From an uncultured bacterium (GTDB lineage: Bacteria; Patescibacteriota; Minisyncoccia; Phycocordibacterales; UBA9973), in NCBI GenBank assembly GCA_937903035.1, contig CALCZP010000003.1, positions 131,156 through 186,257 on the forward strand: a stretch of 55,102 nucleotides of DNA. Direction: 5' to 3'. The first letter of the stretch is position 1. Every line of letters begins with the position of its first letter. The translations under genes were made by a program, and so were the position numbers. Shown here one piece after another: positions 5,008 to 27,997 of this stretch. The notes under the pieces were generated by a model. It worked only from the letters and a program-made list of their open reading frames with translations, was not told the DNA's origin and did no database searches.

Positions 5008-5209
5008 ACTTTTTTGTATTTGTAATGAAAGATTGTTTTGTATGATTATCTCACTTTTAAAAAATAAGTCAATAGATATGACAAAGCCGCCTCAGAGGTG
5101 GCTTTGCTGTTTATTTTTTGTACACGTTTTTGTGGTATCCCGTTCAGCTCGCGCTTCACAGGATCCTACAAAAATATAGTCGCACTCGAGAGAGTGCTCG
5201 TTATTTTTG

Positions 5210-5601
5210 TGGAGATGGGGGGAATCGAACCCCCGTGTAGAAATGGTGAACAAGTAACTCTCCATGCGTAGTACAGTTTGATGTGTTAGGAGTGAATCTT
5301 AAAACGGTACAAAACAATTCATTCCCGAGCCGTTATGTGTTTGGTGTTGCTCTACGGCGAGAGTGACTGCCTATCCCACTGTCATTATGCCGCACTCACT
5401 CTAGTGGGAGTGAAGTGGTGCGACACCGGATCGGCCTAAAGTTAGGCGAATGCCGGAGCGAAGCCAAATGCGTTAGCAAATGGAGACTTCACTGAAGCGG
5501 TTCTGTTGCCAGGTGACCTGTGGACGACGTTTTGCGAGAGTACGTCCATGCTCGGCATGCATACAGGTTCGAGACCATGTCTGTCGAAACCTATCATCCC
5601 C
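5210..5601 (-). ncRNA. ssrA: tmRNA (transfer-messenger RNA)
   Basis: 5' GGGGATGATAGGTTTCGACAG pairs with 3' ...GGGGGTTCGATTCCCCCCATCTCC-A, giving a G3:U70 Ala identity pair. CCA is not encoded. An internal frame ...GCT AAC GCA TTT GGC TTC GCT CCG GCA TTC GCC TAA (5442-5477) encodes a tag ending ANAFGFAPAFA. The gene lies directly downstream of smpB. Confidence 0.85.
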
Positions 5602-8091: not shown

Positions 8092-9102
8092 ATGTGGTAC
8101 CTTCGCCCACTCGGAATGCTGTTCTTGATGGGGCTTGCACTTCCGTTTGCTCCAAGCAGGCGTGCATTTTCACCAGAAGCTCCTGTCACTGACATTGTTC
8201 AACACCAGGCGGTCACACTCGTGCTTGTCGGAGATATTATGATGGATCGCGGTGTGAGGCGAAAAGTAGTCCAAAACATGGGCGGTGACTATACGAATCT
8301 CTTTGCACATACGTCATATATCACCGATGCTGATATTGCCTTTGCAAACTTTGAAGGCACTGCTGCGCTCTCAGGTCATAATATAGGCAGTCGATTCTCG
8401 TTTCATATGGATCCTGTAGTGGTGAATGCACTTGCAGCTGCAGGTTTTGATGTCGTGTCGTTTGCAAACAATCATGTAGGAGACTGGGCACGCGAAGCGT
8501 TTGATGAAACACGAAATCATTTGAAAAATAGCGGAATTCTTGTTGCTGGTGCAGGTGACAATGCAGCTGATGCGACAATACCTCGTGTCATTGATGTTCG
8601 TGGTACTACGGTTGGCTTCCTTGCGGCGACTGATGTTGGCCCGAATTGGCTCAAAGCGACAGAAAAGTCTTCGGGAATTTTACTTGCAAATGATCCGAAG
8701 CTTCTAGATAGTATCGCAAAAGCAGATAAGGAAGTGGATGTACTTGTGATGTCATTTCATTTTGGCAATGAGTACTCGCCGACAAATGCGCGACAAGTAG
8801 CACTTGCGCATGCTGCAATCGATGCAGGTGCAGATATTGTGGTAGGGCATCATCCGCATGTCATGCAGCGAGTCGAGGAGTACAGCGGCAAGCCTATATT
8901 TTACAGCCTCGGCAATTTCATATTTGATCAGTCATTTTCACCGCATACGATGCACGGTATGGTAGCGACCGTCAGCATTGATCCAGTTACAAAAACGATC
9001 ACGCACAGCGAACAGGTGAGTCCACTGAACAATATATTTGTACCCCAGTCACTCATTCCATTTGATACATCACTCCTCGTGACCAGAACATTTACTCCAT
9101 AA
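8092..9102 (+). CDS. capA: CapA/PgsA-family metallophosphatase-like protein (copy 1)
   Basis: VGDIMMDRG, FANNHVGDW and GHHPHVMQ motifs; N-terminal hydrophobic anchor; starts 5 nt after ftsH. Confidence 0.8.
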   Translation: MWYLRPLGMLFLMGLALPFAPSRRAFSPEAPVTDIVQHQAVTLVLVGDIMMDRGVRRKVVQNMGGDYTNLFAHTSYITDADIAFANFEGTAALSGHNIGSRFSFHMDPVVVNALAAAGFDVVSFANNHVGDWAREAFDETRNHLKNSGILVAGAGDNAADATIPRVIDVRGTTVGFLAATDVGPNWLKATEKSSGILLANDPKLLDSIAKADKEVDVLVMSFHFGNEYSPTNARQVALAHAAIDAGADIVVGHHPHVMQRVEEYSGKPIFYSLGNFIFDQSFSPHTMHGMVATVSIDPVTKTITHSEQVSPLNNIFVPQSLIPFDTSLLVTRTFTP

Positions 9103-9135
9103 AAAATATCCCGCATCATGCGGGATATTTTTTTT
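9101..9135. terminator. bidirectional intrinsic terminator
   Basis: AAAAAATATCCCGC-ATCAT-GCGGGATATTTTTTTT between convergent genes. Confidence 0.75.
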
Positions 9136-9143
9136 ATCAATAC

Positions 9144-9617
9144 TTATGCAACTGCGCGATCGCCACCAGTGAGGTGGAGTTCACCTTCGGCAAGTTCAAT
9201 GAGTTCATAGTGCCAGTTCACTCCTTCTTCGGCGAGTGTCATGAGACCTTCGTTGTTCATGCCCTCAGCTGCACCACGTACGAGTGCCCAGTGGACGACC
9301 GCCGCACCTTCAAAGAAGCCACTCCACTCCATGAGTTCGGTCGCATTATCCCATTGATCGCCGACATAGAGATCACGCATCTGTTTGAGCTTATCCTCGG
9401 TCTTGGTTGCCTTGGCAAGGGTAGTGTCAATCATGCCCGCATCAGTTGCGACACGGATGATTTCTTCGCCATGGATACGATTCTTTTCTTCCATATCAAG
9501 TACACGATCAGGGCCGAGTGCTTCTACAAGTGCTGTGTGTCCTTTCTCAAGGGTATCACTTCCGACACGAGTAAAAGCAAGTACTTCTCCCAATTTCTTT
9601 GCTACAAATTCATTCAT
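9144..9617 (-). CDS. hypothetical helical protein (possibly ferritin-like four-helix bundle)
   Basis: 157 aa with protein-like composition; the antisense 173-aa ORF is Cys/Phe-rich and runs into a tRNA. TATACT lies 7 nt upstream of the ATG. Confidence 0.5.
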   Translation of the reverse strand: MNEFVAKKLGEVLAFTRVGSDTLEKGHTALVEALGPDRVLDMEEKNRIHGEEIIRVATDAGMIDTTLAKATKTEDKLKQMRDLYVGDQWDNATELMEWSGFFEGAAVVHWALVRGAAEGMNNEGLMTLAEEGVNWHYELIELAEGELHLTGGDRAVA

Positions 9618-9685
9618 ATAGGGGAGTATAACGCGGGGTTTCCTTTTGTGCTATTGCGCTATACAATCTCAGTACCAGCAACAAA

Positions 9686-9759
9686 GGGAGTATAGCTCAG
9701 TTGGTTAGAGCATCGAGCTTATACCTCGACGGTCGATGGTTCGAATCCATCTACTCCCA
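9686..9759 (+). tRNA. tRNA-Ile, anticodon UAU
   Basis: Cloverleaf GGGAGTA/TACTCCC acceptor; anticodon stem TCGAG/CTCGA; loop CTTATAC with anticodon TAT at 9720-9722; T-arm GATGG-TTCGAAT-CCATC. CCA is not encoded. Confidence 0.85.
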
Positions 9760-9766
9760 CAACATA

Positions 9767-15459: not shown

Positions 15460-15544
15460 GGAGACGTGTCAGAGTGGTCTAATGTACCTCCTTGCTAAGG
15501 AGGCGGGTGTCACAGCCCCGAGAGTTCGAATCTCTCCGTCTCCG
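15460..15544 (+). tRNA. tRNA-Ser, anticodon GCU (class II, long variable arm)
   Basis: Acceptor GGAGACG/CGTCTCC; anticodon arm CCTCC-TTGCTAA-GGAGG; variable arm CGGGTGTCACAGCCCCG; G73 discriminator. Confidence 0.88.
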
Positions 15545-15610
15545 CAAAGTCGTGCCGACACGAGGTATATTGCTTTTAATAAAATACGGAAAGCAATATA
15601 ATAAAGTTAC

Positions 15611-16054
15611 ATGAGTAAAACACATAAAAATGTAATTGTAATTTTCACAGTGTTTCTGATTATAGGATTATTATCTTCTTATTTTTATTGGGGCAAGGAA
15701 ATAATTTCACTAAACTCAACTATTGAAAAATGTACACAAAAAACAAGTATGTTTTTTAAAAAAATGAATACCAAAATAGATCAACAACTCGACTATTCCT
15801 TTGCTGAAAATGATTCAACATTAAAAGCATTACTTGGTAATAAATATAATTATATATCCGAAAAAGATAATAACTGTTACGCCTTAGTAAAAAATTACAA
15901 TTCTATTATAAATGAGTACCGCTATTCTATTTTGAATGCTGATACCGAAGTATTGGAAGTAGTTTTACTTGATCATGATTTAAAAAGTTCATCTTCAAGA
16001 GGATATCAAGAAGAATTCGTATCTAAATATAATCAATTATTTTTGAAAGAGTAA
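15611..16054 (+). CDS. hypothetical membrane-anchored protein (147 aa), very AT-rich
   Basis: N-terminal TM segment VIVIFTVFLIIGLLSSYFYW. Composition is strikingly more AT-rich than the neighbours, and the gene lies just 3' of tRNA-Ser. Confidence 0.5.
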   Translation: MSKTHKNVIVIFTVFLIIGLLSSYFYWGKEIISLNSTIEKCTQKTSMFFKKMNTKIDQQLDYSFAENDSTLKALLGNKYNYISEKDNNCYALVKNYNSIINEYRYSILNADTEVLEVVLLDHDLKSSSSRGYQEEFVSKYNQLFLKE

Positions 16055-16156
16055 AAAGTCCTCACGAGAGGTATAGATTTAGTTTCTGAAAAAGTTTTAG
16101 AATAACCTTATAAGACTTGTTCATCAAAGGTCGGAACCTGAATCTTTCAGCCTAAT

Positions 16157-16187
16157 AAAAAACCACGATAGTATATCGTGGTTTTTT
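16157..16187. terminator. bidirectional intrinsic terminator
   Basis: AAAAAACCACGATA-GTA-TATCGTGGTTTTTT between convergent genes. Confidence 0.75.
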
Positions 16188-16199
16188 ATTACTCTATTT

Positions 16200-16583
16200 T
16201 TAGAGAGTAGGAGCTACAGCAACAGGATTGAGTTTATGGTATGCCTTGTATGAAAATGCGAGGAGTACCATACATACGACCGGTGCAAGAAGTACTGGAG
16301 TGACACCGTCGACAATGAGGAGACTGAGAAATGCAAAGATGAAATCAAATGCAAATCCAGCATAGATCCATTCTTTGCACACACCTTTGATCATTGGGAG
16401 GACAAGTCCAACTGCGCCAACGACTTTGAAGATCGTGAGGAGGGTACCAAAGTATTCAGGATAGCCGAGATGTCGAATACCTTCCTTTGCAAGCTCGCTC
16501 TGTGAGGTGAGTGCCGGCATGAGCCCTTCGAACAAGAAAATAATAATCGTGGTGACCCAAAAAGTGATTTTTGTTGATTTCAT
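16200..16583 (-). CDS. DoxX-like small membrane protein
   Basis: Start trimmed to MKSTKITFWV. There are four hydrophobic helices, and LGYPEYFGTLLTIFKVVGAVGL resembles DoxX-like proteins. Confidence 0.6.
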   Translation of the reverse strand: MKSTKITFWVTTIIIFLFEGLMPALTSQSELAKEGIRHLGYPEYFGTLLTIFKVVGAVGLVLPMIKGVCKEWIYAGFAFDFIFAFLSLLIVDGVTPVLLAPVVCMVLLAFSYKAYHKLNPVAVAPTL

Positions 16584-17271: not shown

Positions 17272-17359
17272 GGAGGCGTGGATGAGTGGTTTAAATCAAC
17301 GGTTTACTAAACCGTCGGCCTTAATCGGCCCGAGAGTTCGAATCTCTCCGCCTCCGCCA
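17272..17359 (+). tRNA. class II tRNA with Ser architecture and anticodon ACU (A34); CCA encoded
   Basis: Acceptor GGAGGCG/CGCCTCC; D-arm GAT-GAGTGGTTTAA-ATC; anticodon arm ACGGT-TTACTAA-ACCGT with anticodon at 17306-17308; long variable arm; T-arm GAGAG-TTCGAAT-CTCTC; G73 then CCA. Confidence 0.75.
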
Positions 17360-17362
17360 AAA

Positions 17363-18088
17363 ATGAAAACAAGTGTTCTCATAATTGCATATAACGAAGA
17401 AAAACATATCGGTGCATGTATTGAGTCAGTGCTGAGACAAACAATTCCGGCTGATGAGATCATTGTTGTCGCGCACAACTGTACTGATGCGACGGAGCGT
17501 ATTGCGCAATTATATCCGGTGAAGCTGGTGTCATTTCAAGGACCTGTCGGTATTATCTATGCACGCATCGAGTCACTCAAACAGGTGACAGGGGATGTGG
17601 TGCTCTGTACGGATGGTGATGCGGTGGTTGATCGCAACTGGATTGAAGTGATGACAAGAGTGCTCGTAGAAAACAAAAACATGCTTGTTGGATCGCGTGT
17701 TATGTTTGTCGGGACTTTTTATAATAGATTCTGTAATTTCCTTAATACAATTGTTGGATGGTTTCTGCCTTGCAGTGGTCCAAAAGTTACTCGTGTGATC
17801 TGGGGTCCGAGTATTGCATTTTGGGCAAAGAACAAATATGTTGTCTCAGATATATTTGCACAAAGTTATATATGGTCAAGAAATCTTGGACTCACACGGA
17901 ATCCTGATGACTACTGGCTTGCACTTGAAATGAGTAAACGTGGCAATATTGCCTATACAACTGACACGACTGTGCGCGCAGTCGCAAAAGAACTCACAAG
18001 TCTCGATGCATATAAACGTAATCGTGAAAACAACAAACATGGAAAAAAGATACGTGCGTATTTCAAGTCTAAATACTGTCACTCATAG
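17363..18088 (+). CDS. family 2 glycosyltransferase
   Basis: SVLIIAYNEEKHIGACIESVLRQT ... DEIIVVAHNCTDAT ... CTDGDAV (DxD-like). The start was trimmed because the upstream part of the tracked ORF is the tRNA. Confidence 0.85.
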   Translation: MKTSVLIIAYNEEKHIGACIESVLRQTIPADEIIVVAHNCTDATERIAQLYPVKLVSFQGPVGIIYARIESLKQVTGDVVLCTDGDAVVDRNWIEVMTRVLVENKNMLVGSRVMFVGTFYNRFCNFLNTIVGWFLPCSGPKVTRVIWGPSIAFWAKNKYVVSDIFAQSYIWSRNLGLTRNPDDYWLALEMSKRGNIAYTTDTTVRAVAKELTSLDAYKRNRENNKHGKKIRAYFKSKYCHS

Positions 18089-18090
18089 AT

Positions 18091-18126
18091 AAAAAAATCT
18101 CTTCAATTATTGAAGAGATTTTTTTA
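18091..18126. terminator. bidirectional intrinsic terminator
   Basis: AAAAAAATCTCTTCAA-TTAT-TGAAGAGATTTTTTT. Confidence 0.75.
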
Positions 18127-18303
18127 TTAGTTCTTTGATTCGATTTTTCGGAGCTCTTCTTCTGCTGCCTGAATCAAGAGGTCGATACCAAAATTTTCTT
18201 GCTCAATAAGGTCTTTTTCTGCAGTATCAAATTCGATAAGTGCCTCAGTTTGGTCACTGGTGAGTTCTGCTGGTTCGGGTTGTGGTTGGTCAAAATGATT
18301 CAT
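18127..18303 (-). CDS. small acidic protein (58 aa), third gene of the uncharacterised cassette
   Basis: Not in the ORF track (below 60 aa). I translated it by hand: MNHFDQPQPEPAELTSDQTEALIEFDTAEKDLIEQENFGIDLLIQAAEEELRKIESKN. It starts 11 nt after the upstream stop and ends at the terminator. Confidence 0.4.
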   Translation of the reverse strand: MNHFDQPQPEPAELTSDQTEALIEFDTAEKDLIEQENFGIDLLIQAAEEELRKIESKN

Positions 18304-18314
18304 AGGTATAGCTA

Positions 18315-19460
18315 TTATGCAGCCTGTGCGGCACCAACATCAAGGATGTTTTCTTTTCGCTGTACTAGGTTGCTGACTTTATTCTTAAATTTGTTCAGGA
18401 TATCACCAAGGTGTTTGCCACTGTTCACGAGCTTTTTGGTCAAATGCTCTGCACCGCCACCTGCAGCCATGAGTTCAATTGCATGGAGGACATCCTTGCC
18501 GATACCGAGTGCATGAAGTGATGGGCCGATGAGTACATGTGTGGTGTATTCAGTTGCGGTCGCAAGCATCGGGAACTTGTGTTCAAATTTCTCAAAGAGT
18601 GTTTGATGTTTTGTATGTGCTTCAGACAGTACTTCAGCACCTGTCTGTGCTTTGATATTGTGCTCCATCCCTTGCGCGAATGCTTGCTGGTCTTCTGGTG
18701 AGAGGTGAGCGACACGATCCATCACTTCCTTGAGCTTTGCAAGTTTTGCCTCATGTATTTCAAGTGCTTTTGCTTTCTCAGATTCTGCAGACGCGAGACG
18801 CTCAATCTGCTCGGGTGAGGCTTTTGCGAGGAGTTTCTCTCGCATGCTTTGAGGGAGGTTTGCCGCGACTTTCTCAAACCCTTTGAGTGCCCACATACCA
18901 CCAGCTTTTGATCCTGCAACTGATGTCGCAGCACCGAGGAATCCATGACCTGCGATGGTGCCACCTATACCACCTGCAATATTTCCGATTCGTCCAACCA
19001 TTTTTATCAGTTTTGGGTTGTAGTTGTGTTCATCAGTGAGTTTTTGTTCAAGTTTACTTTGTGCATGGACAAGGTGTGCAAACTTTTCTTTTATGGTGGC
19101 GATGATACTTTTTCCTTCGGGTGACTGTTCTATCTCAGTAGTAATAAATGCTTGTTCTTCTTGTGGTAGCTGTTGTATTTCGGCAAGCGTTGCTTCATGT
19201 GTCTCGGCAAGCGTGCTGCCAATCTCAATCGACTCTACTGTACGGTTAAATTCACTATTCTCAATGGCTGCACTATCCGCCAATGTTTCATTTGGTGGCA
19301 GTGATTCAGGGTTTACAAGTGAGTCTGCTATCTCAATACTTGTTCCTTCGGGAGATATAGCAATGTTCGTCTCATCGACTGTTTCAGGTGCAGCACGTTC
19401 CTCAGTTGGTATAACTACTTCTTCATCGCTATTGGGTCCTGTAGAAAATGTTTCATGCAT
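18315..19460 (-). CDS. hypothetical 381-aa protein: acidic disordered N-terminus, glycine-zipper segment, helical C-terminal half
   Basis: About 110 N-terminal residues are rich in E/T/S/P. It carries MVGRIGNIAGGIGGTIAGHGFLGAATSVAGSKAGG (GxxxG repeats) and a second Gly-rich patch, ELMAAGGGAEH. I recognised no family. Confidence 0.6.
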   Translation of the reverse strand: MHETFSTGPNSDEEVVIPTEERAAPETVDETNIAISPEGTSIEIADSLVNPESLPPNETLADSAAIENSEFNRTVESIEIGSTLAETHEATLAEIQQLPQEEQAFITTEIEQSPEGKSIIATIKEKFAHLVHAQSKLEQKLTDEHNYNPKLIKMVGRIGNIAGGIGGTIAGHGFLGAATSVAGSKAGGMWALKGFEKVAANLPQSMREKLLAKASPEQIERLASAESEKAKALEIHEAKLAKLKEVMDRVAHLSPEDQQAFAQGMEHNIKAQTGAEVLSEAHTKHQTLFEKFEHKFPMLATATEYTTHVLIGPSLHALGIGKDVLHAIELMAAGGGAEHLTKKLVNSGKHLGDILNKFKNKVSNLVQRKENILDVGAAQAA

Positions 19461-19618
19461 TAGTTTGAAGGGGAGTTAAAGCTCTGCTTGATACTGTAGC
19501 GCATGCGCTGGATCTCAGCCTGTTTGAGATAGGCAGCAATTGCTTTGTTATATTCATCAAGTGCACGCTTGAGTGCCTGCGTGTCCGCGATGATTTCTGC
19601 TGTATCCAAAGTGTTCAT
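19460..19618 (-). CDS. small coiled-coil protein (52 aa), first gene of the cassette
   Basis: MNTLDTAEIIADTQALKRALDEYNKAIAAYLKQAEIQRMRYS. Its TAA stop shares nt 19460 with the ATG of the next gene (TAATG). GATAAT lies 7 nt upstream of the ATG at 19618. Confidence 0.4.
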   Translation of the reverse strand: MNTLDTAEIIADTQALKRALDEYNKAIAAYLKQAEIQRMRYSIKQSFNSPSN

Positions 19619-19654
19619 ATGTATGATTATCCATAATACTAGTCCACTTTGCAA

Positions 19655-20299
19655 TTATTTCCTCGCATACCCATGTGAAAGTGCAATACAGTGGATCTTT
19701 TTGGCACCGGAGGCTTTGAGTGCGCGGATGGCTTCGAGGAATGTTGCGCCGGTGGTGGTGACATCATCAATCACGATATAGAGCAACTTTGGATCAAGAC
19801 CTTCATCGGCAGTCATTGAGTGTGTGACATTTTTAAATCTCAGGGATTTGTTTTTGATATGTGCTTGAGGAATCGTAGTTGCTGTTTTAGAGAGGAGCTC
19901 TCGAACGATAGTGTCGGGGATTGATTGGGCTATCCAGATGGCAATGAGTTTGCTCTGATTGAAGCCGCGTTCATGCTTTTTGTATTTGTGTTGGGGAATA
20001 GGGACGAGGATGATGGATTCTCGGTGTATGCTCTGGATCATATCGGTCAGTGTGTCGATGATATGGGGTACCGCTGCGTTGGTGAGTACACGAGCGGATT
20101 CACTCCGACGATGGTACTTGAGATTACGGATTGCACCTGCGACGAGCTTGTGCCCGTATTCAAAGATTGCAGTTATATGTCGGTCATCAGTCTCTCGTGC
20201 AGCAGGGATTGAAGCAATACACCTCTCGCACAGTGCTCGGCTATGCCTGCCGCAGCCGGCACAGCGTTCAGGGAAGAAAAGGCTTGAGAGAAAGCTCAT
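19655..20299 (-). CDS. comFC: ComF-family protein (ComFC-like phosphoribosyltransferase fold)
   Basis: N-terminal CAGCG...CERC zinc-finger-like motif and PRTase motif IVIDDVTTTGATFLEA. Confidence 0.85.
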   Translation of the reverse strand: MSFLSSLFFPERCAGCGRHSRALCERCIASIPAARETDDRHITAIFEYGHKLVAGAIRNLKYHRRSESARVLTNAAVPHIIDTLTDMIQSIHRESIILVPIPQHKYKKHERGFNQSKLIAIWIAQSIPDTIVRELLSKTATTIPQAHIKNKSLRFKNVTHSMTADEGLDPKLLYIVIDDVTTTGATFLEAIRALKASGAKKIHCIALSHGYARK

Positions 20300-20352: not shown

Positions 20353-21483
20353 ATGGATAGCATACTCGAAGGAATCAAATCTCTGATCGCAGGACTTTTT
20401 GGCAAAGGGGGCGACAATGTATCAGTTGGTATTGATGTTGGTACTTCATCAATCAAAGTCGTCCAGCTCAAACGTGAGAACGGACGTGCGGTGCTCGACA
20501 CCTATGGTGCACTTGCACTTGGGCAATATCAAAAAGATGGTGTGGTAGGACAAGTAGTGAATCTTGATGTTGATACGCTTGCAAAAGCACTCCGGGATAC
20601 CCTCACTGAAACAAAAATCACGAGTCAGAATGTAGTGATCGGTATTCCATCAGTGTCTTGTATTATCTTTATCTTGCAGCTACCTGCAGAGATTGAAGAA
20701 AAGTCATTGGGTGCGGTGATTCCAAACGAAGCAAAGAAATTTATTCCGGTACCAATCACTGAAGTTTCACTCGACTGGTATGTGATTCCTCGACGTGAAG
20801 ATTCAGGGACGGAGAGTCGTGTGCTCTCAGAGAGTGGGGGAGATGCAAAAATCTCAGTCCTTGTTGTTGCAACATTGAATGAAACTATTACTAAGTTTAC
20901 TGATGTCTTACAAAAAGCTGAGGTCCCAATGAACTCACTTGAGATTGAAGTCTTTAGTCAGATTAGATCAACCCTTACTCGCGAACTTTTCCCGGTGCTT
21001 ATCATTGATATTGGTGCTTCAAAAACAAAACTTGCTATTGTGGAGCACGGTATTGTCGAGACATTCCGACTCGTGACGCGTGGTAGCCAGGATATGACCC
21101 TTGCAATTGCTCGAACACTGCAGATTCCGTTTGTAAAAGCAGAAGCAATCAAAAAAGATAATGGACTTATTGAAAGCCCCGAACATCCACAGGTGCCTGA
21201 GCTCATCAAGACGCAACTTGTTGAAATATTCCAAGAAGCAAATGCTACTATTCTTGCATACGAAAAACGTTACAACAAAAATATTGGCAAGGTCATCTTT
21301 ACTGGTGGAGGATCAATGACGCGTGGTTTCCTTGAATATGCAAAGCCAAGCTTTGCAACTGAGCTCGTAATTGCTGATCCGTTTGCAAAAGTTGATGCAC
21401 CAGTGTTTCTTGCAGGAGTACTGAAAGCAACTGGTCCCGAATTTTCTGCTGCGCTTGGACTTGCAATGAAAAAATTTCAGTAA
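20353..21483 (+). CDS. pilM: type IV pilus assembly protein PilM (actin-like ATPase fold)
   Basis: VGIDVGTSSIKVVQLK and IIDIGASKTKLAIV phosphate motifs; followed by pilN/pilO-like genes. Confidence 0.9.
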   Translation: MDSILEGIKSLIAGLFGKGGDNVSVGIDVGTSSIKVVQLKRENGRAVLDTYGALALGQYQKDGVVGQVVNLDVDTLAKALRDTLTETKITSQNVVIGIPSVSCIIFILQLPAEIEEKSLGAVIPNEAKKFIPVPITEVSLDWYVIPRREDSGTESRVLSESGGDAKISVLVVATLNETITKFTDVLQKAEVPMNSLEIEVFSQIRSTLTRELFPVLIIDIGASKTKLAIVEHGIVETFRLVTRGSQDMTLAIARTLQIPFVKAEAIKKDNGLIESPEHPQVPELIKTQLVEIFQEANATILAYEKRYNKNIGKVIFTGGGSMTRGFLEYAKPSFATELVIADPFAKVDAPVFLAGVLKATGPEFSAALGLAMKKFQ

Positions 21484-21551
21484 TCCCCGGAGAATACGCG
21501 TATAGTACTTGTACACTGCGTGCACTATCGTGATATAATTATCACACATAA

Positions 21552-22253
21552 ATGCCGCCGAACATTCCAACATCATTTATTCCAAAGCGTCCGATTGATA
21601 CGACGAGCGCTGTGACCGAAACAAAGCCAAGCCGAGCAGTCGGTCTCTTGTCGTTTTTGACCGTCATTATTGTGATTGCAACAATAGTCTCATTTGGTGG
21701 GGTATTTCTCTATCAAAAACAATTAGCATCACAAAAGATTGCACTCGAAAAATCTATCAATGATGCGCGTGATGGTCTGGGAACAGAGTTTGTAGGAGAT
21801 ATGAAGCGCCTTGATGCACGTATTGATGGAGTGAAAGCACTCCTGAAGAGTCATGTTGTTGTCTCTCCAGTATTTGCAGCGCTTGAAGCAACCACTCTTC
21901 ATTCAATTCAATACAAAACATTTAAATACACGTTTATTACTGATAGTGGTACGAAGGCGCAGGTAGTACAAGTCAGTCTCAGTGGTATTGCAAAAAGCTA
22001 TGCAACGATTGCACTTCAGTCAGATGCATTTACGCAGAGCGCTCTTATTCGCAATCCGGTATTCTCAAACCTGACGATTGATGACAAAACTGGATCAGTT
22101 GCTTTTAGACTCACCTTTACGGTAAACCCTGCTGATCTCTCGTTCCAAACCTTTATTGATAGTAAACTAAAGGCTACTGGTACTACCACTGCGCAGACTC
22201 CTAGTGTTCCTGCAGTTGTTGATCCAATCAAGCCATTAACTACACCACAATAA
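21552..22253 (+). CDS. pilN: PilN-like bitopic pilus assembly protein
   Basis: Single TM segment (LLSFLTVIIVIATIVSFGGVFLY) then a coiled coil. The call rests on position between pilM and pilO. Confidence 0.6.
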   Translation: MPPNIPTSFIPKRPIDTTSAVTETKPSRAVGLLSFLTVIIVIATIVSFGGVFLYQKQLASQKIALEKSINDARDGLGTEFVGDMKRLDARIDGVKALLKSHVVVSPVFAALEATTLHSIQYKTFKYTFITDSGTKAQVVQVSLSGIAKSYATIALQSDAFTQSALIRNPVFSNLTIDDKTGSVAFRLTFTVNPADLSFQTFIDSKLKATGTTTAQTPSVPAVVDPIKPLTTPQ

Positions 22254-22828
22254 TGAGATATATTTTTTTACTAATCGTTATAGGAGTTTCAGTCGGTGTC
22301 TTCGTGATGTTTGTGTGGCCACGCTATCAGAATATTCAAACAACGCGTGCAGCAATTGCAAACTCTGATAATAGTCTCAGTACTGCGGCAAAACTTAAAG
22401 CATCTCGTGAGGCACTCATTGCAAAATATAACAGTATTCCAAAAGCTGACTTAGACAACTTGAAGACATTGCTTCCTGATACTGTGAACAACATTCGTCT
22501 GATTATTCAGATCAATGCGCTTGCAACCAAAAATGGTCTCTCAGTGCTTCGAAATGTTGAGTATCAAGCGGTACAGGAAAAAGCCGCAGCAGGTGCTGCA
22601 AATACCGAAGCATCAAGGCGGCCTTATGGAGAATTTGCAGTATCATTTGAAACCGTAGGGCAGTATAAGAACTTTCTCGCATTTCTTTCTGATCTTGAGG
22701 CAAACCTTCGCTTGATTGATGTCACTGGTATTGATTTTAGTCTTGGGGCGGGAGCCGGAGGGGATCAAGGTGGGATCGTAAGTAATAGTTATAAAGTGTC
22801 ATTAAAGACCTATTGGTTAAAACAATAA
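22253..22828 (+). CDS. pilO: PilO-like bitopic pilus assembly protein
   Basis: N-terminal TM segment, a coiled coil, then an alpha/beta domain. ATGA start/stop overlap with pilN. Confidence 0.6.
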   Translation: MRYIFLLIVIGVSVGVFVMFVWPRYQNIQTTRAAIANSDNSLSTAAKLKASREALIAKYNSIPKADLDNLKTLLPDTVNNIRLIIQINALATKNGLSVLRNVEYQAVQEKAAAGAANTEASRRPYGEFAVSFETVGQYKNFLAFLSDLEANLRLIDVTGIDFSLGAGAGGDQGGIVSNSYKVSLKTYWLKQ

Positions 22829-22829
22829 T

Positions 22830-23519
22830 ATGAACAAGAAACTCAAAATCGTCATATTCATCGTTATAGGACTTGCCGCTGTTGTTGTAGCACTTAAGGT
22901 CTTTGGTGGCTCATCTGCACAGGTACCCAAGCCGGCAACTGGCACACTCTCAACAACATCTGCAGTTGTTCCAGGAAATACTGCAAAGCCGGTAACTACA
23001 GCCGGACAATCAAGTGAATTTTCAGCACTTCTTTCTAGTGTAAAGTCTATCGATATTGATACGTCTATTTTTGAAAACAATGCATACAAAAGTTTACGCG
23101 ATTATCCCGTTTCTCTCGGTACTGATATTGTTGGGCGCCAAAACCCCTTTGCCCCCATTGGTGTTGATCCTGCAGGTGGTGCAACTACGGGGAGTGGGGT
23201 TGTTGCAACTCCAGAGCTTCAGACATTGCAGCCAAGTAAAATCACGGCAAATGGAGCTGAATTTGGCGCACAAATGACCGTGACTGATGGTGTGCCAGTA
23301 ATGGTGATGTTTGAATACGGTATTAGTGACACATTTGGAAATGCTACTCCTCCGGGGGTACTTGGTAAAAATGGCACGATACTTACACCAGTCACAGGAC
23401 TTGCACCTTCGACACTCTATTATGTGCGCGCAGTTGCGGCACAAGGGTCGAACACAACAACCGGCACTATTATGACATTTACGACATTGGCAAAGCCTGT
23501 CGCCGCACCAAAGCGATGA
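22830..23519 (+). CDS. membrane-anchored pilus-locus protein with a C-terminal fibronectin-III-like domain
   Basis: N-terminal TM segment IVIFIVIGLAAVVVAL, a Thr/Ser/Ala linker, and the C-terminal FN3-like signature LAPSTLYYVRAVAAQGSNTTTGTIMTFTT. Confidence 0.5.
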   Translation: MNKKLKIVIFIVIGLAAVVVALKVFGGSSAQVPKPATGTLSTTSAVVPGNTAKPVTTAGQSSEFSALLSSVKSIDIDTSIFENNAYKSLRDYPVSLGTDIVGRQNPFAPIGVDPAGGATTGSGVVATPELQTLQPSKITANGAEFGAQMTVTDGVPVMVMFEYGISDTFGNATPPGVLGKNGTILTPVTGLAPSTLYYVRAVAAQGSNTTTGTIMTFTTLAKPVAAPKR

Positions 23520-25258
23520 TGTTTCTGGACTTCTTGCTTTCACAGCACATCATAACCGAGCTTCAGTATAATCAAGTATTGGCTGAGGTTGATGCGCAGT
23601 ATGAAGGTAACTACAACAAAGCACTACTTGCAACAGGTGTCAGTGAAGAAGCACTGACTGCTGCAAAGTCTACTTTTTATAAACTCCCGTATCAAAAAAT
23701 TGATGCAAAAAATATTCCTCACGATATTTTGAAGTATGTTGCCGAAGAAGCTGCAACGCATTATAAATTTGTACCGATTGGCTTTGCAGAAGGAGTGCTA
23801 TCTATTGGGGTGACCGAACCTGAAAATATCGAAGGGATGAATGCCTTGCAGTTTATTTCTGCGAAGCAAGGGATTCCGTTCAAGATTTTTCTTATCTCAT
23901 ATAGTGATTTCATTGCAGTACTTGAGAGTTATAAGGCACTTTCACAGGAAGTTGATAGTGCAGTGGGAGAGCTTAATGACGAACTTGAAGGTGCAAATCA
24001 GTCTATTGGGAGTGGCAAGGGTGCAATCGAACAGCTTGTTGGTGATGGAACAAAAAAAGATGATACGGGAAAGCTTGTCGAAGATGCGCCGATCATCAAG
24101 ATTGTGGCAGTGATTATCAATCATGCGGTTGAAGGAAATGCATCCGATATCCATATTGAAAATAATGGCGACAAGGTGAATGTTCGCTATCGTGTTGATG
24201 GAGATCTGCATACGACACTAGTGCTCCCGATCAATACATTTGATGGTATTATTGCGCGTGTCAAAATCCTCTCCAAACTTCGTCTTGATGAAAAGCGAAA
24301 GCCACAAGATGGATCCTTTGCGACAATGATTAGTGGCCGCAAGATCGAGTTTCGTGTCTCCACGTTTCCTGCATACTATGGTGAAAAGGTCGTTATGCGT
24401 ATCTTGGACTCTGAAAAGGGCGTTAAACCATTGGATCAGATTGATCTTAGTCCTGAGCATCTCAAAATGGTACGCGAAGCACTTGATCGTCCGTATGGAC
24501 TCATCCTTATTTCAGGTCCGACTGGTTCCGGTAAATCAACCACGCTCTATTCGATGCTCAACAGTATTGATCGTGAAATTTATAACGTGGTCTCCCTTGA
24601 AGATCCGGTTGAGTACCAAGTATCCGGTGTGACACAGTCACAGATGATGCCTGAGATCGGCTATACCTTTGCGGCAGGTCTTCGCTCTGTGCTTCGTCAG
24701 GACCCTGATGTGATCATGGTGGGAGAAATTCGCGACAAGGAAACTGCACAGCTTGCGATTCAGGCGGCGCTTACTGGTCACTTGGTGTTCTCAACAATTC
24801 ACACCAACACGGCAGTTGGGGTAATCCCACGTCTTGTTGATATGGGTGTTGATCCGTATTTGATTGCACCAACACTTGTGCTTTCGATGGCACAGCGTCT
24901 CGTGCGTCGTGTGCATCCAAGTGTGCGTCACGAAGTACCGATGGATGATGTGACCAAGGAAATGATAAAAAAGCAGCTCGCCGACCTTCCGCCAGAGCAT
25001 CAAGCAGCATTCAAAGTTCCTGAAAAAATGTTTGAGATCAAGCCTTCAGCAGAAGCGCCATCAGGCACACGTGGTCGTATGCCAGTTTTTGAAATGTTTG
25101 CAGTCGACCGAGAAATGCAAGAAATCATCCTCAAGAGTCCTGTCGAGCCTGATATTTATAGGGCAGTGCGTGCCAAAGGAATGCTTATGCTTCGTGAGGA
25201 TGCACTTCAAAAGGCATTAAAGGGCGAAGTAACAATGCAAGAGGTCTACGGACTATAA
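23516..25258 (+). CDS. pilB: type IV pilus assembly (extension) ATPase PilB/GspE family
   Basis: Walker A GPTGSGKSTTLYSML, Asp box, Walker B VIMVGEIRD, His box TGHLVFSTIHTN. Confidence 0.95.
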   Translation: MMFLDFLLSQHIITELQYNQVLAEVDAQYEGNYNKALLATGVSEEALTAAKSTFYKLPYQKIDAKNIPHDILKYVAEEAATHYKFVPIGFAEGVLSIGVTEPENIEGMNALQFISAKQGIPFKIFLISYSDFIAVLESYKALSQEVDSAVGELNDELEGANQSIGSGKGAIEQLVGDGTKKDDTGKLVEDAPIIKIVAVIINHAVEGNASDIHIENNGDKVNVRYRVDGDLHTTLVLPINTFDGIIARVKILSKLRLDEKRKPQDGSFATMISGRKIEFRVSTFPAYYGEKVVMRILDSEKGVKPLDQIDLSPEHLKMVREALDRPYGLILISGPTGSGKSTTLYSMLNSIDREIYNVVSLEDPVEYQVSGVTQSQMMPEIGYTFAAGLRSVLRQDPDVIMVGEIRDKETAQLAIQAALTGHLVFSTIHTNTAVGVIPRLVDMGVDPYLIAPTLVLSMAQRLVRRVHPSVRHEVPMDDVTKEMIKKQLADLPPEHQAAFKVPEKMFEIKPSAEAPSGTRGRMPVFEMFAVDREMQEIILKSPVEPDIYRAVRAKGMLMLREDALQKALKGEVTMQEVYGL

Positions 25259-25297
25259 AAACAAATAGTACACCATAGCCTTTCCTTTGAAAGAGGG

Positions 25298-25303
25298 TAT
25301 ACT
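25298..25303 (+). promoter_or_regulatory. internal -10 box TATACT upstream of the REC gene
   Basis: TATACT at 25298-25303, 8 nt upstream of ATG 25312. This favours 25312 over 25306 as the start. Confidence 0.35.
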
Positions 25304-25311
25304 ATATGTAT

Positions 25312-25737
25312 ATGACCGACGTTATTCAAGAAGTACCAGAAGCTGCTCCGGTAAAAGGAAAGAATATTTTTATTATTGATGATGATATCTTTTTGCTTGA
25401 TATGTATGCAATGCGCTTTGCACAGGCTGGCTACAAGATTGAGACTGCGATGAGTGCTGCTGATGCTATTGCAAAACTTGAAGCTGGTCTTACTCCAGAT
25501 ATTATGCTCATGGATGTGGTGATGCCTGCAGTTGATGGATTTGAAATGCTTGAAAGTATCAATGCAAAAGGCTTGGTCCCAAAAACAATTAAGATTTATT
25601 TATCAAATCTTGGACAAGAACAAGATATTGCTCGAGGTAAATCACTCGGCGCAGCAAGTTATATCGTCAAAGCAAACAGTACTCCGTCAGAAGTCGTTGC
25701 ACATGTAGAAGAAGTTATCAAAACCTATGGATTATAA
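25312..25737 (+). CDS. stand-alone response-regulator receiver domain (CheY/PilH-like)
   Basis: IFIIDDD acidic pocket, phospho-acceptor context DIMLMDVVMPAVDG, and conserved S (YLSNLG) and K (YIVKA). Confidence 0.85.
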   Translation: MTDVIQEVPEAAPVKGKNIFIIDDDIFLLDMYAMRFAQAGYKIETAMSAADAIAKLEAGLTPDIMLMDVVMPAVDGFEMLESINAKGLVPKTIKIYLSNLGQEQDIARGKSLGAASYIVKANSTPSEVVAHVEEVIKTYGL

Positions 25738-26785
25738 AACACTCTTTCGTGATCTGATCAAAATAATGATTGAACAAGGTGCGTCAGACCTCCACCTTGG
25801 TGCGGGGCGTTACCCCGGTATTCGCGTTAATGGTGACCTCACGCAACTCATGGCGCAGCCAATCCTTACACAGGAAGATATGAACGGCATATTACAGTCA
25901 GTTCTTTCCGAGGATAAATATAATAAATTTATTACAAAACAGGAGCTTGACTTCTCCTATGAATATGAGGTTGGTGCACGTCTTCGCGTAAATGCATTTG
26001 TACAACAAGCAAAGTTTGTGATGGTGCTTCGTCTGATTCCCCAAGTGCGCACCTTTGAAGAATTGAAACTCCCGCCAATCCTTGCTGAATTCGCACACAA
26101 AAAACAAGGATTCTTTTTGGTGGTAGGTCCTGTTGGTAGTGGTAAGTCTTCGTCCCTTGCTGCCATGATCAACCTCATCAATGAAGAGCGTCCTGCGCAT
26201 ATCCTCACGATTGAGGATCCGGTTGAGTATGTCTACACACCAAAAAAGTCAGTGATTGACCAGCGTGAAATCGGTCTTGATACCGAAAGTTTCCCAGTTG
26301 CACTCAAAAGCGCACTCCGTGAAGATATGAACGTGATCTTGATCGGTGAGATGCGAAATGCAGAGACGATCGGTGCTGCGGTGACTGCAGCTGAGACGGG
26401 GCACTTGGTGTTCTCAACTCTTCATACGAACACGGCAGGGCAGACGGTGGACCGTATTATCGATTCATTCCCTGGCGATCAACAGGATCAGGTGCGTATG
26501 CAGCTTGCGGCATCACTCCTTGGGGTGTTCTCCCAGCGACTTATTCCCGGAGTAAATGGTGGTCGTGTTCCTGCGTACGAGCTTCTCATCAACAATACTG
26601 CCGTTGCAAACTTGATCCGTGAAAAGCGCACTCATGAGATTGATATGGTTATTGAGACAGGCTTTGAGCTTGGTATGGTTGATATGAACCGTTGTTTGGT
26701 TGATCTCGTGAAGCAGGGACTGATCACTGTTGAGAATGCGTACGCCTATTCGACTAACCCAAAGAACTTGGAGCGCCTCCTTTAA
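25727..26785 (+). CDS. pilT: twitching-motility (retraction) ATPase PilT
   Basis: Walker A GPVGSGKSSSLAAMI, VILIGEMRN, TGHLVFSTLHTN, 352 aa. Confidence 0.95.
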   Translation: MDYKTLFRDLIKIMIEQGASDLHLGAGRYPGIRVNGDLTQLMAQPILTQEDMNGILQSVLSEDKYNKFITKQELDFSYEYEVGARLRVNAFVQQAKFVMVLRLIPQVRTFEELKLPPILAEFAHKKQGFFLVVGPVGSGKSSSLAAMINLINEERPAHILTIEDPVEYVYTPKKSVIDQREIGLDTESFPVALKSALREDMNVILIGEMRNAETIGAAVTAAETGHLVFSTLHTNTAGQTVDRIIDSFPGDQQDQVRMQLAASLLGVFSQRLIPGVNGGRVPAYELLINNTAVANLIREKRTHEIDMVIETGFELGMVDMNRCLVDLVKQGLITVENAYAYSTNPKNLERLL

Positions 26786-26788
26786 TCT

Positions 26789-27997
26789 ATGCTTTTTCAC
26801 TACACTGCACTTACTGATAAGGGAGTAAAACAAGATGGCACCATTGATGCGGCAACACGCGATCTTGCTTCTGCGGGTTTGCAGCGTCGCGGATTGATCG
26901 TGACGTCAATCAAGAGTGAGGAAGAAAACAAAAAATGGTTTGAGATCAGCCTCTTTGAAAAGGTGCCGATGAAAGAAATCGTCATCCTCTCACGTCAGAT
27001 GTCCACACTGTTTGAAGCACAGGTTTCTGCACTCAAGGCATTCTCACTCCTTGCAAACAATACTGAAAACAAACTCCTCAGTCGCAAGCTCAACCAGATT
27101 GTGACTGATCTGCAGGGAGGTTCATCGATTGCAGGTGCGCTCGGCAAACACAAAGATGTTTTCTCAGATTTTTATATCAATATGATCAAGGCAGGTGAGG
27201 AGTCAGGTAAGCTCACCTCAGTGTTTGCATTCATGGCTGACTATCTCGATCGTCAGTATGCATTGACCTCCAAGACCAAGCATGCACTCGTATATCCAGC
27301 ATTCGTTATTGGCATCTTCTTCGTGGTGATGGGACTTATGTTTACGGTCGTGATCCCAAAGCTCTCAGGTATTATCAAAGAAAGTGGGCAGGATGTACCG
27401 TTTTATACCAAAGCAGTGATGGCTATATCTGACTTCACCGTGCAGTACGGTATATTTTTCCTCATTATTGTTGCGGCAGCTATTGGCTATATGATCCACT
27501 TGTCACGTACCAAAAAAGGAAAGGAGGTTCTTGATGAGCTTGCACTCTCTATCCCGATTGTTGGTAATCTCTATCAAAAGCTCTATCTTGCTCGTATTGC
27601 GGATAACATGGATACGATGCTCTCATCTGGTATTCCGATTATTCGTGCAATCGAGATTACTGCCGGTGTGGTAGGAAATAAACGCTATCAAAAAGTGTTG
27701 ATGGAGTCGATGGAGGCGGTAAAGGCCGGAAAGCCATTCTCTCAAGCGCTTGAAGCGCATCCCAAGGAAATTCCAAAACTCATGCCGCAGATCATCAAGG
27801 TTGGTGAAGAAACTGGTAGCATGGGATCTATTCTCAAGATGCTCGCGAAGTTCTATAACCGTGAGGTGAATGAAGCCGTGGATACACTGGTGGGTCTGAT
27901 CGAGCCATTCATGATCATCTCGCTCGGTCTCGGTGTTGGGGTGCTCTTGGTCTCGGTGTTGGTGCCTATCTACAACATCGCTGGGGGTATCCAATAG
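26789..27997 (+). CDS. pilC: type IV pilus platform protein PilC/GspF family
   Basis: Two GspF-type repeats and three TM segments; 402 aa. Confidence 0.9.
   Translation: MLFHYTALTDKGVKQDGTIDAATRDLASAGLQRRGLIVTSIKSEEENKKWFEISLFEKVPMKEIVILSRQMSTLFEAQVSALKAFSLLANNTENKLLSRKLNQIVTDLQGGSSIAGALGKHKDVFSDFYINMIKAGEESGKLTSVFAFMADYLDRQYALTSKTKHALVYPAFVIGIFFVVMGLMFTVVIPKLSGIIKESGQDVPFYTKAVMAISDFTVQYGIFFLIIVAAAIGYMIHLSRTKKGKEVLDELALSIPIVGNLYQKLYLARIADNMDTMLSSGIPIIRAIEITAGVVGNKRYQKVLMESMEAVKAGKPFSQALEAHPKEIPKLMPQIIKVGEETGSMGSILKMLAKFYNREVNEAVDTLVGLIEPFMIISLGLGVGVLLVSVLVPIYNIAGGIQ

Follow-up and report, generated by a model that had tools for sequence, protein, structure and literature searches.

Three genes, termed A, B and C, form a compact unit on the minus strand of the 55,102-nucleotide (nt) stretch of patescibacterial DNA analysed here, whose full length is referred to as the window; the homologous loci are numbered L001-L025. 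The trio is an autonomous operon and has been inherited vertically. An earlier note prepared from the letters alone, the sequence-only reading, had placed three co-directional genes at this site, and the sequence check agrees with it on coordinates and strand. The unit consists of the following elements (aa, amino acids; pI, isoelectric point):

Positions 19618 to 19460, minus strand: gene A, the first cistron, 52 aa from an ATG start; a single-helix protein.
Positions 19460 to 18315, minus strand: gene B, 381 aa, all-helical, with an acidic disordered N-terminus, two homologous modules of ~140 aa and a tail ending in -AA.
Positions 18303 to 18127, minus strand: gene C, 58 aa, acidic (pI 4.05), with the N-terminal motif M-x-x-F-(D/E)-x-P.
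Positions 19626 to 19654, minus strand: sigma70-like promoter of the trio, from the promoter scan; the element is also found in L001 and L003.
Positions 18088 to 18128, no strand assigned: bidirectional intrinsic-terminator hairpin, common to gene C and the convergent GT2 gene.

Nucleotide 19460 belongs both to the TAA stop of A and to the ATG of B (TAATG at 19462-19458), and this overlap is identical in two relatives. Gene C follows after a gap of 11 nt, and the unit closes with a perfect 19-nt inverted repeat (arms 18089-18107 and 18109-18127), bordered by one run of A and one of T. The A/B overlap, the position of C and the bidirectional terminator had all been noticed from the letters, and all are present. 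A 64-aa form of A starting from TTG, called by the ORF finder, was rejected: the same frame in L001 carries an in-frame TAG upstream of the conserved ATG.

All three are real coding genes under purifying selection. The ratio of nonsynonymous to synonymous divergence (dN/dS), computed from comparisons with two related genomes in which synonymous sites have reached saturation (pS 0.56-0.78), amounts to 0.07-0.15 in A, 0.11-0.15 in B and 0.09-0.22 in C. The GC content of the trio (0.43-0.47) matches the window mean of 0.44; a compositional island or horizontal transfer was considered and rejected, the GC of the trio being that of the chromosome and flanking direct repeats not having been found. 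Between the window and L003, identity is 96% for pilM, 75% for comFC, 58% for B and 45% for C. Judged by pilM and comFC, L003 is at least as close to the window as L001; judged by A, B and C, L001 is by far the closer of the two. Such discordance between adjoining genes points to faster evolution or recombination of the trio.

Transcription and translation of the unit

The 36-nt gap between A and the comFC-like gene upstream contains the promoter element, by which comFC is separated from A. It is composed of a −35 box TTGCAA (19654-19649), a 17-nt spacer and a −10 box GATAAT (19631-19626), the end of which lies 7 nt before the ATG of A. The promoter scan gave 7 promoter-like matches against 6.6 expected, so that a single match is not significant; because a lone match is no more than chance would give, the call is carried by conservation. 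The element is near-identical in L001 and L003 despite the saturation of synonymous sites, and in L001 the similarity starts just upstream of the −35 box, the sequence farther upstream being a RadC insertion. Elements of the same kind stand before A in other lineages: TTGACA-17-GATAAT with 8 nt to the ATG in L009, TTGAAC-17-TATGCT with 6 nt in L013, TATACT with 9 nt in L015, and the perfect consensus TTGACA-17-TATAAT, 13 nt from the ATG, in L022. Overall, six of 11 loci have a −10 box whose end is 6-9 nt away from the start codon of A. The trio thus has its own conserved sigma70-type promoter.

No Shine-Dalgarno-like sequence was found ahead of A, B or C. Because the −10 box lies so near the ATG of A, the mRNA is probably leaderless or near-leaderless at this gene. 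B would be translated by termination-reinitiation coupling to A, and C after the short gap, with transcription stopping at the hairpin.

Conservation of the trio and turnover of its neighbourhood

A word-indexed search with B returned only two relatives, with 73% and 55% identity. An exhaustive HMMER search with a profile of these against 1.84 billion cluster representatives gave 15 clusters at E <= 0.001, 13 of them below 1e-10, with homologues 23-37% identical to B; the B family alignment comprises 17 sequences. When the 17-sequence profile was used in the word-index search, only 4 proteins were recovered, the exhaustive hidden Markov model (HMM) search being the productive route. All members that bear a name are annotated as 'hypothetical protein', from Candidatus Paceibacterota, Pacebacteria or Patescibacteria group, and the trio has so far been found only in Paceibacteria. 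A search with a 7-sequence subset found no relatives on IMG/VR viral contigs; 3 metagenome loci matched.

The small-B-small arrangement recurs across the loci. In every locus with enough flank (L001, L003-L006, L008/L022, L009-L011/L021, L012, L013/14, L015, L016, L017-19 and L023/24), a gene of 41-60 aa precedes B and one of 44-76 aa follows it, with spacers that range from a 1-nt overlap to 16 nt between A and B and are mostly 4-25 nt between B and C. The upstream proteins share the A motif EYNKAxxEYL(K/R)xxEIxRxxYSLK, and the downstream ones, mostly acidic, share the N-terminal M-x-x-F-(D/E)-x-P. The pI of A-type proteins varies from 4.7 to 9.2 across the family, which makes a conserved DNA-binding role of A unlikely. 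Both A and C are hydrophilic (grand average of hydropathy, GRAVY, −0.58 and −0.82) and devoid of a hydrophobic stretch. That A or C might be fragments of the B repeat was considered and rejected, since hhalign gives a probability of 0.1-2% against the B halves. In L025, the most distant locus, the order is B-C-A: B is followed by an acidic 73-aa protein and then by an A-like 60-aa protein with the motif ...ERIKFKIEK. The three components therefore stay together through rearrangement, across lineages in which B is only 23-37% identical, and the conservation check bears out the sequence-only reading in treating the three genes as one tightly coupled unit.

The same does not hold for the surroundings. 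In the window, the trio is flanked by two genes that lie outside the unit:

Positions 19655 to 20299, minus strand: comFC-like gene (phosphoribosyltransferase domain and zinc ribbon), upstream of A.
Positions 17363 to 18088, plus strand: GT2 glycosyltransferase, convergent with the trio.

The comFC-like gene matches TIGR00201 ComF (E 1.9e-19) and GntX (E 1.6e-20), both under the curated cut-offs. Across the loci, the neighbours are as follows:

Window and L003-5: comFC and GT2.
L001: RadC and an 87-aa gene inserted between comFC and A.
L009/L021: UvrC.
L013: FolD and a serine recombinase.
L015/L023: FUR, a ParA-like protein and a Cys-rich protein.
L016: M23 peptidase.
L017: OmdA and a 1273-aa S74-peptidase protein.
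L022: RNase HII ... SecA.

GT2 after the trio is also present in L001 and L004. The linkage to comFC and pilM is confined to the window, L003 and L005, where B is 55-58% identical, and is interrupted in L001. Since the neighbours change completely between lineages, the comFC/pilM adjacency is local synteny of one sub-lineage and not a property of the family. The position between comFC and the pilus genes, which had been described as fixed, consequently holds for the closest relatives only.

These data bear directly on the proposal that the trio is an accessory module of the competence or type IV pilus (T4P) apparatus, tied to comFC and pilM. The trio does adjoin comFC and stands back-to-back with pilM-pilN-pilO-pilB-pilT-pilC in three cases (the window, L003 and L005), and in L001 these genes are not far off; moreover, Com and T4P genes are widespread in Patescibacteria and act together (PMC10633639). 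However, every more distant member with flanks has lost the linkage, comFC and A are parted in L001 by RadC and the 87-aa gene, the trio is served by a promoter and a terminator of its own, and the family is far rarer in the phylum than the com/T4P genes. Neither a prepilin-type N_methyl motif nor a signal peptide is present in A, B or C, and Pfam and NCBIfam gave no match of these proteins to N_methyl, PilN, PilO or related competence or pilus domains. The synteny data already largely refute a pilus accessory role, which is regarded as highly improbable, and the 'competence or surface module' of the sequence-only reading falls with it, loss of the comFC/pil linkage in related genomes being the outcome which that reading had itself named as refuting.

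Several further observations concern the neighbouring DNA. A complete T4P assembly cluster occupies 20353-27997 on the plus strand, divergent from comFC, in the order pilM, three small bitopic proteins (233/191/229 aa), PilB-type ATPase (580 aa), response regulator (143 aa), PilT-type ATPase (352 aa) and PilC (402 aa). In gene order and gene sizes the cluster corresponds to the Pfam-annotated ones of L001 and L003. In L001, RadC/UPF0758 (245 aa) and the unassigned 87-aa gene lie on the opposite strand at 8757-9761, and this insertion ends just upstream of the −35 box of the trio. In L015 (6085-7669) and L023 (3730-5749), a ParA/MinD-like ATPase (281 aa) and a conserved Cys-rich protein of 218-239 aa, for which no Pfam match was found, precede the trio on the same strand, with a FUR gene further upstream in L023; this pair could be a lineage-specific functional partner of the trio. 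At L017 1846-5667, the trio is adjoined by the 1273-aa protein with a Peptidase_S74 domain. As this domain is an intramolecular chaperone of phage tail spikes and fibres, the trio may here adjoin a prophage or, alternatively, a tail-fibre-like surface protein.

On the GT2 side of the window, a tRNA-Ser lies at 17272-17359 on the plus strand. Its anticodon is ACT according to ARAGORN, which is unusual among bacteria, and it is 71% identical to a tRNA-Ser(GCT) located 1.8 kb upstream (15460-15545, plus strand). The mechanically called 268-aa GT2 ORF, starting at 17282, overlaps this tRNA-Ser, so that GT2 more probably begins with the ATG at 17363. A low-GC island (0.29-0.33 versus the window mean of 0.44) lies at ~15500-16400, in the interval between these tRNA-Ser genes, and holds a 147-aa ORF with a hydrophobic N-terminus (15611-16054) and a perfect 18-nt hairpin (16153-16191); it may be a small insertion at a tRNA gene.

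Architecture of protein B and its possible relation to the membrane

Three segments of B are distinguished in the following discussion:

Positions 19176 to 19460, minus strand: B residues 1-95, acidic (net −20), rich in Ser/Thr/Pro, variable in length and predicted to be disordered.
Positions 18885 to 19004, minus strand: Gly-rich hairpin 1 (B residues 153-192), a basic glycine zipper.
Positions 18441 to 18575, minus strand: Gly-rich hairpin 2 (B residues 296-340), net acidic, aligned with hairpin 1 in the internal-repeat alignment.

The composition of the first ~110 residues, with 23% D/E, 28% S/T/P, no Lys and two Arg, confirms the acidic, Ser/Thr/Pro-rich N-terminus recognised by the sequence-only reading. 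No secondary structure is predicted for residues 1-58, and in the AlphaFold2 (AF2) model the per-residue confidence (pLDDT) is below 50 at residues 1-63, 74-79 and 81-86, with block means of 31-54 up to residue 90. With the 17-sequence alignment, the model reaches a pLDDT of 57 overall and block means of 54-83 for residues 90-290; with 3 sequences the value was 34, and the model was not usable. Both the alignment and the AF2 model describe the body of B as all-helical, its helices being punctuated by S/T-P-E-E caps. Conservation is strongest in this core, and the variable part of the protein is the N-terminus.

The core is internally repeated. When residues 60-205 were aligned with residues 206-365, hhalign gave a probability of 96% (E 4e-9). 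In the controls, the value fell to 9.7% on reversal of the second half and did not exceed 0.4% in any of 20 column shuffles. Three features are in register between the halves: the Gly-rich hairpin, the Y-(N)-P turn and the L-(S)-P-E-E cap. As the two halves align far above the controls, B is a tandem duplication of a ~140-aa helical module.

Hairpin 1 contains the glycine zipper GRIGNIAGGIGGTIAGHGFLGAATSVAGSKAGG (residues 156-188), in which G159-x3-G163-x3-G167-x3-G171 form consecutive GxxxG steps, in keeping with the glycine-zipper definition of three or more small residues, chiefly Gly, at i, i+4 and i+8 along a single helix face. The zipper pattern is a conserved feature of the 17 members: G159, G163, G164 and G167 are at least 90% conserved and G183 is also nearly invariant, so that the zipper picked out from the letters is real. 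The family consensus is VGxxGKxxGGxxGxxxGHG...AVAGSKxGG, with GHG at the turn; AF2 places the helices at residues 149-170 and 176-200, with block-mean pLDDT of 54-83 and a dip at the turn. Hairpin 1 carries a net charge of +1 to +2, and in most family members the regions on either side of it are net positive too. Amphipathic segments (hydrophobic moment, muH, ~0.5) cover residues 145-162, 190-207 and 343-369.

Hairpin 2 includes the second Gly-rich patch noted earlier, AAGGGAE at residues 332-338, which is present as described. Its consensus is KYPxLATxxExxxHxxIGPxL...HxIExxAAxGGAEK, with P297, E304, H308 and E338 invariant, a further invariant residue, E293, just upstream, and H326/E329 kept in most members. 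One reading makes the trio a soluble cytoplasmic helical-bundle complex, away from any membrane, in which the basic hairpin 1 and the acidic hairpin 2 would form a tight pseudo-symmetric four-helix core and E293/E304/H308/E338 (with H326/E329 in most members) would bind a metal or small ligand. The internal duplication, the opposite net charges of the two hairpins and the clustering in hairpin 2 of the only invariant polar residues, which are Glu and His, are all consistent with such a bundle, as are the absence of a signal peptide and a hydrophobicity too low for transmembrane (TM) helices. On the other hand, no metal-binding or four-helix-bundle family is matched, H326 and E329 are lost in distant members, AF2 confidence is low in the Glu/His region, and the lone weak RNR-R2 match falls on repeat 1, off the Glu/His cluster. 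A soluble bundle is accordingly considered possible but rather unlikely. Its narrower form, a ferritin-like di-iron bundle, had been raised by weak RNR-R2/ferritin matches together with the Glu/His cluster and was rejected as unsupported: the RNR-R2 match (P0013, E 0.005) maps to residues 47-185, outside the cluster, and B has ExxxH and HxxE spacings as opposed to the paired E...ExxH of di-iron bundles.

The sequence-only reading had regarded the packed GxxxG repeats as typical of membrane-inserting or pore-forming segments. Only part of this stands: the zipper motif is there, but a translocon-type TM helix is not predicted by Hessa or KD19 for either Gly-rich hairpin, which goes some way towards the lack of predicted membrane interaction that this reading had named as refuting. 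The best 19-mer of B has a Hessa sum of +6.0 kcal/mol and a KD19 of 1.05, and the family-wide Hessa minimum is +2.0; for comparison, values of −2.2 to −3.3 are obtained for TM helices of the pilN/O/C-like genes of the window. A membrane-active role of hairpin 1 is conceivable.

Searches for export signals and toxin features were negative. Unlike secreted glycine-zipper pore formers and bacteriocins (microcin V, CdzC/D, Tse4, TspA), B has no export signal, its N-terminus being acidic, disordered and without a hydrophobic core. Genes of ABC/type I (T1SS), type VI (T6SS) or type VII (T7SS) secretion were absent among the Pfam-annotated neighbours in related loci, and in none of the loci examined do the called genes include one for type VII secretion. 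Immunity to a pore former is normally conferred by a small integral membrane protein; no adjacent gene of this kind was found, A and C being hydrophilic. PADLOC-DB gave no match to anti-phage defence components at E <= 1 for A, B or C, and Pfam, NCBIfam and PADLOC gave none to type II toxin-antitoxin families.

These results bear on the idea that B is a glycine-zipper membrane-permeabilising effector of the toxin, abortive-infection or lysis type, which would open a pore by hairpin oligomerisation, with A as a co-translated chaperone and the acidic C masking the basic hairpin until release. The conserved zipper motif speaks for it, together with weak similarity to microcin V, holin and tape-measure-like zippers, those of Tde1 and tape-measure proteins having been linked to membrane permeabilisation and translocation (PMC10240207). 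The distribution is patchy and rare, the neighbours are variable and in some loci mobile or phage-like (the serine recombinase of L013, the 1273-aa S74 peptidase protein of L017), B and C evolve faster than their flanks (B 58% versus pilM 96%), and many B proteins end in -AA, a possible degron. Nevertheless, a signal peptide, a secretion system and a leader are all lacking, neither A nor C has a hydrophobic segment, unlike the usual immunity proteins of pore formers, and there is no PADLOC match, toxin domain or match in viral contigs. The comFC-GT2 synteny is stable and vertical in three lineages, the GC is that of the chromosome, the consensus-like promoter suggests constitutive expression, and a conserved core with a variable N-terminus is the opposite of polymorphic toxins. 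The toxin with small partner proteins put forward in the sequence-only reading is not borne out, since B has no signal peptide, secretion system, membrane-type immunity protein, PADLOC or toxin-domain match, or polymorphic C-terminus; an effector function in the wider sense is held to be improbable, though not negligible.

The C-terminus of B deserves separate mention. Most full-tailed B-family proteins end in -AA or -xA (QAA, IAA, MAA, NAA, VAA, TAA, VLA, LPA), and the resemblance of the -AA of B to ClpXP-type degrons hints at regulated proteolysis. The tail is not an exact copy of the tmRNA tag, a candidate tag frame of the tmRNA of this genome ending in ...FAPAFA. The tmRNA itself lies at window positions 5207-5601 on the minus strand (Rfam, 101 bits); ARAGORN did not detect it, even on the region alone.

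As the sequence-only reading had stated, the trio cannot be assigned to a known family. Nothing significant emerged when A, B and C were compared with Pfam, NCBIfam, PHROGs and PADLOC, and the HMM and structure checks, with PDB and Foldseek included, agree. The confident housekeeping homology of the 381-aa protein that was named beforehand as refuting was not found. Profiles of B, A and C searched against PDB sequences gave coiled-coil noise only, and Foldseek of the B model against PDB and BFVD gave nothing at E <= 0.1, with only BAR or chemoreceptor-like long helices. When all 17 B members were scanned against the family libraries, only sub-threshold matches appeared, mostly to Gly-zipper or coiled-coil families: MccV, C19orf12, DUF6861, phage holin (Phage_holin_3_5) and PRK11280 were matched in relatives at 15-19 bits, compared with cut-offs of 27-99. 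For B of the window, the only match to a curated Gly-zipper or Gly-rich membrane family at E <= 1 falls in the C-terminal helix and is to TatA_B_E, at 11.9 bits versus a cut-off of 21. None of the curated Gly-zipper membrane families tested (MccV, C19orf12, DUF6861, Phage_holin_3_5, TatA_B_E, PRK11280, YiaD_Gzip_OmpA) exceeds its gathering threshold. Where mapped, the weak matches lie mostly on hairpin 1 and the helix after it. In the literature searched, no paper linking the glycine zipper with Patescibacteria was found, and DUF6861 appeared in one unrelated preprint.

Among the phage families, phrog_16692 is matched by seven of the 17 members (best E 4.5e-06), five of them mapped at profile positions ~724-862 of 1107, and the tape-measure family phrog_167 by 4 members. 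Such matches, together with the small genes that flank B, would fit an origin by domestication, B being what remains of a phage tape-measure-like protein and the small genes encoding its chaperones. The matched stretches, however, span ~60-270 residues in relatives only, the window protein having none at E <= 0.1, and those mapped are mostly confined to the Gly-zipper and the adjacent coiled coil, so that they are probably compositional. Membership judged by the full-length profile and tail-gene context is not supported: tail genes are absent near most loci, the neighbours being mostly housekeeping, IMG/VR holds no relative, and B is 3-4 times shorter than tape-measure proteins. A tape-measure origin thus appears very improbable.

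Interpretation and comparison with known systems

The reading tentatively preferred here is that the trio encodes a cytoplasmic, membrane-peripheral, three-subunit, all-alpha-helical scaffold. B is placed in the cytoplasm because it has neither a signal peptide nor a segment hydrophobic enough for Sec insertion. Its attachment to the membrane, on the inner face, would be peripheral or re-entrant and would involve the basic glycine-zipper hairpin 1, the amphipathic basic flanks of this hairpin and the basic amphipathic C-terminal helix; the GxxxG faces would make the helices pack tightly and oligomerise. Hairpin 2, which is acidic and bears the invariant Glu/His cluster, may pack against hairpin 1 or bind a cation, and the acidic disordered N-terminus would project into the cytoplasm. 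A, coupled to B and presumably made 1:1 with it, and the acidic C would act as single-helix partners capping or regulating the helices of B. The role would be that of a membrane-associated scaffold or membrane-organising complex in ultrasmall cells.

In favour of the scaffold, the trio is kept together under purifying selection while its neighbours vary, the promoter near the ATG and the internal duplication of B are conserved or well controlled, the all-helical model has moderate confidence for the hairpin at residues 149-200, the zipper glycines are nearly invariant, hairpin 1 and its flanks are mostly basic with amphipathic segments alongside, and the mapped weak matches lie mostly on hairpin 1 and are to membrane glycine-zipper families, including tape-measure-like PHROGs. 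Several points count against it. The Hessa value of +6 kcal/mol and KD19 of ~1.0 speak against true TM helices, the helices of hairpin 1 being only ~15-17 residues long. The net-acidic hairpin 2 fits the core of a soluble bundle better than lipid. The AF2 model is weak (pLDDT 57, below 50 after residue 310), with generic long-helix Foldseek matches only; the physical interaction of A, B and C is deduced from gene coupling only; and a family so rare would be unusual for a core structural function.

A bolder form of membrane activity is also conceivable. By analogy with the way in which tape-measure and Tde1 glycine zippers breach membranes, the trio might be a three-component membrane-active machine specific to Paceibacteria, in which the internally duplicated B is kept soluble by the mini-subunits and, on a trigger, inserts post-translationally to open or remodel a membrane, be it that of its own cell or that of the host cell carrying the attached episymbiont. 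This triggered insertion is considered quite unlikely. The remaining probability belongs to functions outside the scaffold, effector, bundle, pilus and tape-measure readings.

Much of the diversity of uncultured bacteria is patescibacterial, and the genes specific to these lineages are for the most part functionally uncharacterised; lineage-specific hypothetical operons are common among them. Against this background, an anonymous stretch becomes a defined, testable unit of three co-inherited proteins, with a clear arrangement of promoter, coupling and terminator. Its limits are sharp, and it is amenable to experiment. With 15 clusters, the family is small enough for exhaustive study of its duplicated core, glycine zipper and Glu/His cluster. 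If B is membrane-active, it would represent a new architecture among glycine-zipper proteins and could help to explain the ways in which ultrasmall episymbionts arrange membranes or pass through them. Should it prove to be an ordinary scaffold, the analysis still corrects the tempting but wrong inference of competence or pilus membership.

Four groups of known systems invite comparison. T7SS LXG toxins with their Lap proteins and the glycine-zipper toxin TspA are toxin-partner modules with small helical accessories. As a general analogy, they resemble the trio in that a large helical glycine-zipper protein is flanked by small helical proteins in one operon. They differ from it in that the trio has no LXG/WXG100 or T7SS match and no membrane immunity protein, and the N-terminus of B is disordered and acidic instead of the LXG helical type.

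PspA with PspB/C and DivIVA-type proteins are peripheral coiled-coil membrane scaffolds, and PspA has small partners. The likeness, again one of analogy only, lies in the cytoplasmic coiled coil, the amphipathic basic helices and the operon with very small helical proteins. PspA/IM30, DivIVA and ESCRT-III, however, have no sequence or fold match to B, and those families possess neither a glycine zipper nor such an internal duplication.

The glycine zippers of tape-measure proteins and of the T6SS effector Tde1 are tied to membrane permeabilisation and translocation (PMC10240207). B resembles them in carrying a Gly zipper within a long helical protein, in its weak PHROG matches and in the small helpers alongside. 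In contrast, it stands in neither a tail nor a T6SS context, lacks nuclease and lysin domains and has no relatives on viral contigs, and the mapped similarity is mostly that of the Gly stretch and the following helix. These zippers may therefore serve as a lead on what the motif can do, and not as evidence of membership.

A likeness in motif links B to the Gly-zipper membrane hairpin proteins of the MccV, C19orf12, DUF6861 and E. coli PRK11280 type, with which B shares consecutive GxxxG steps in a helix-turn-helix and conserved Gly residues; the glycine-zipper motif itself reportedly goes back to Kim et al. 2005. B differs from these proteins in being 3-10 times longer, mostly soluble coiled coil and far less hydrophobic than a TM hairpin, in having no signal peptide or lipobox, and in having two small obligate partner genes. 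B is accordingly described as a glycine-zipper helical-hairpin protein in a novel duplicated architecture with two obligate mini-partners.

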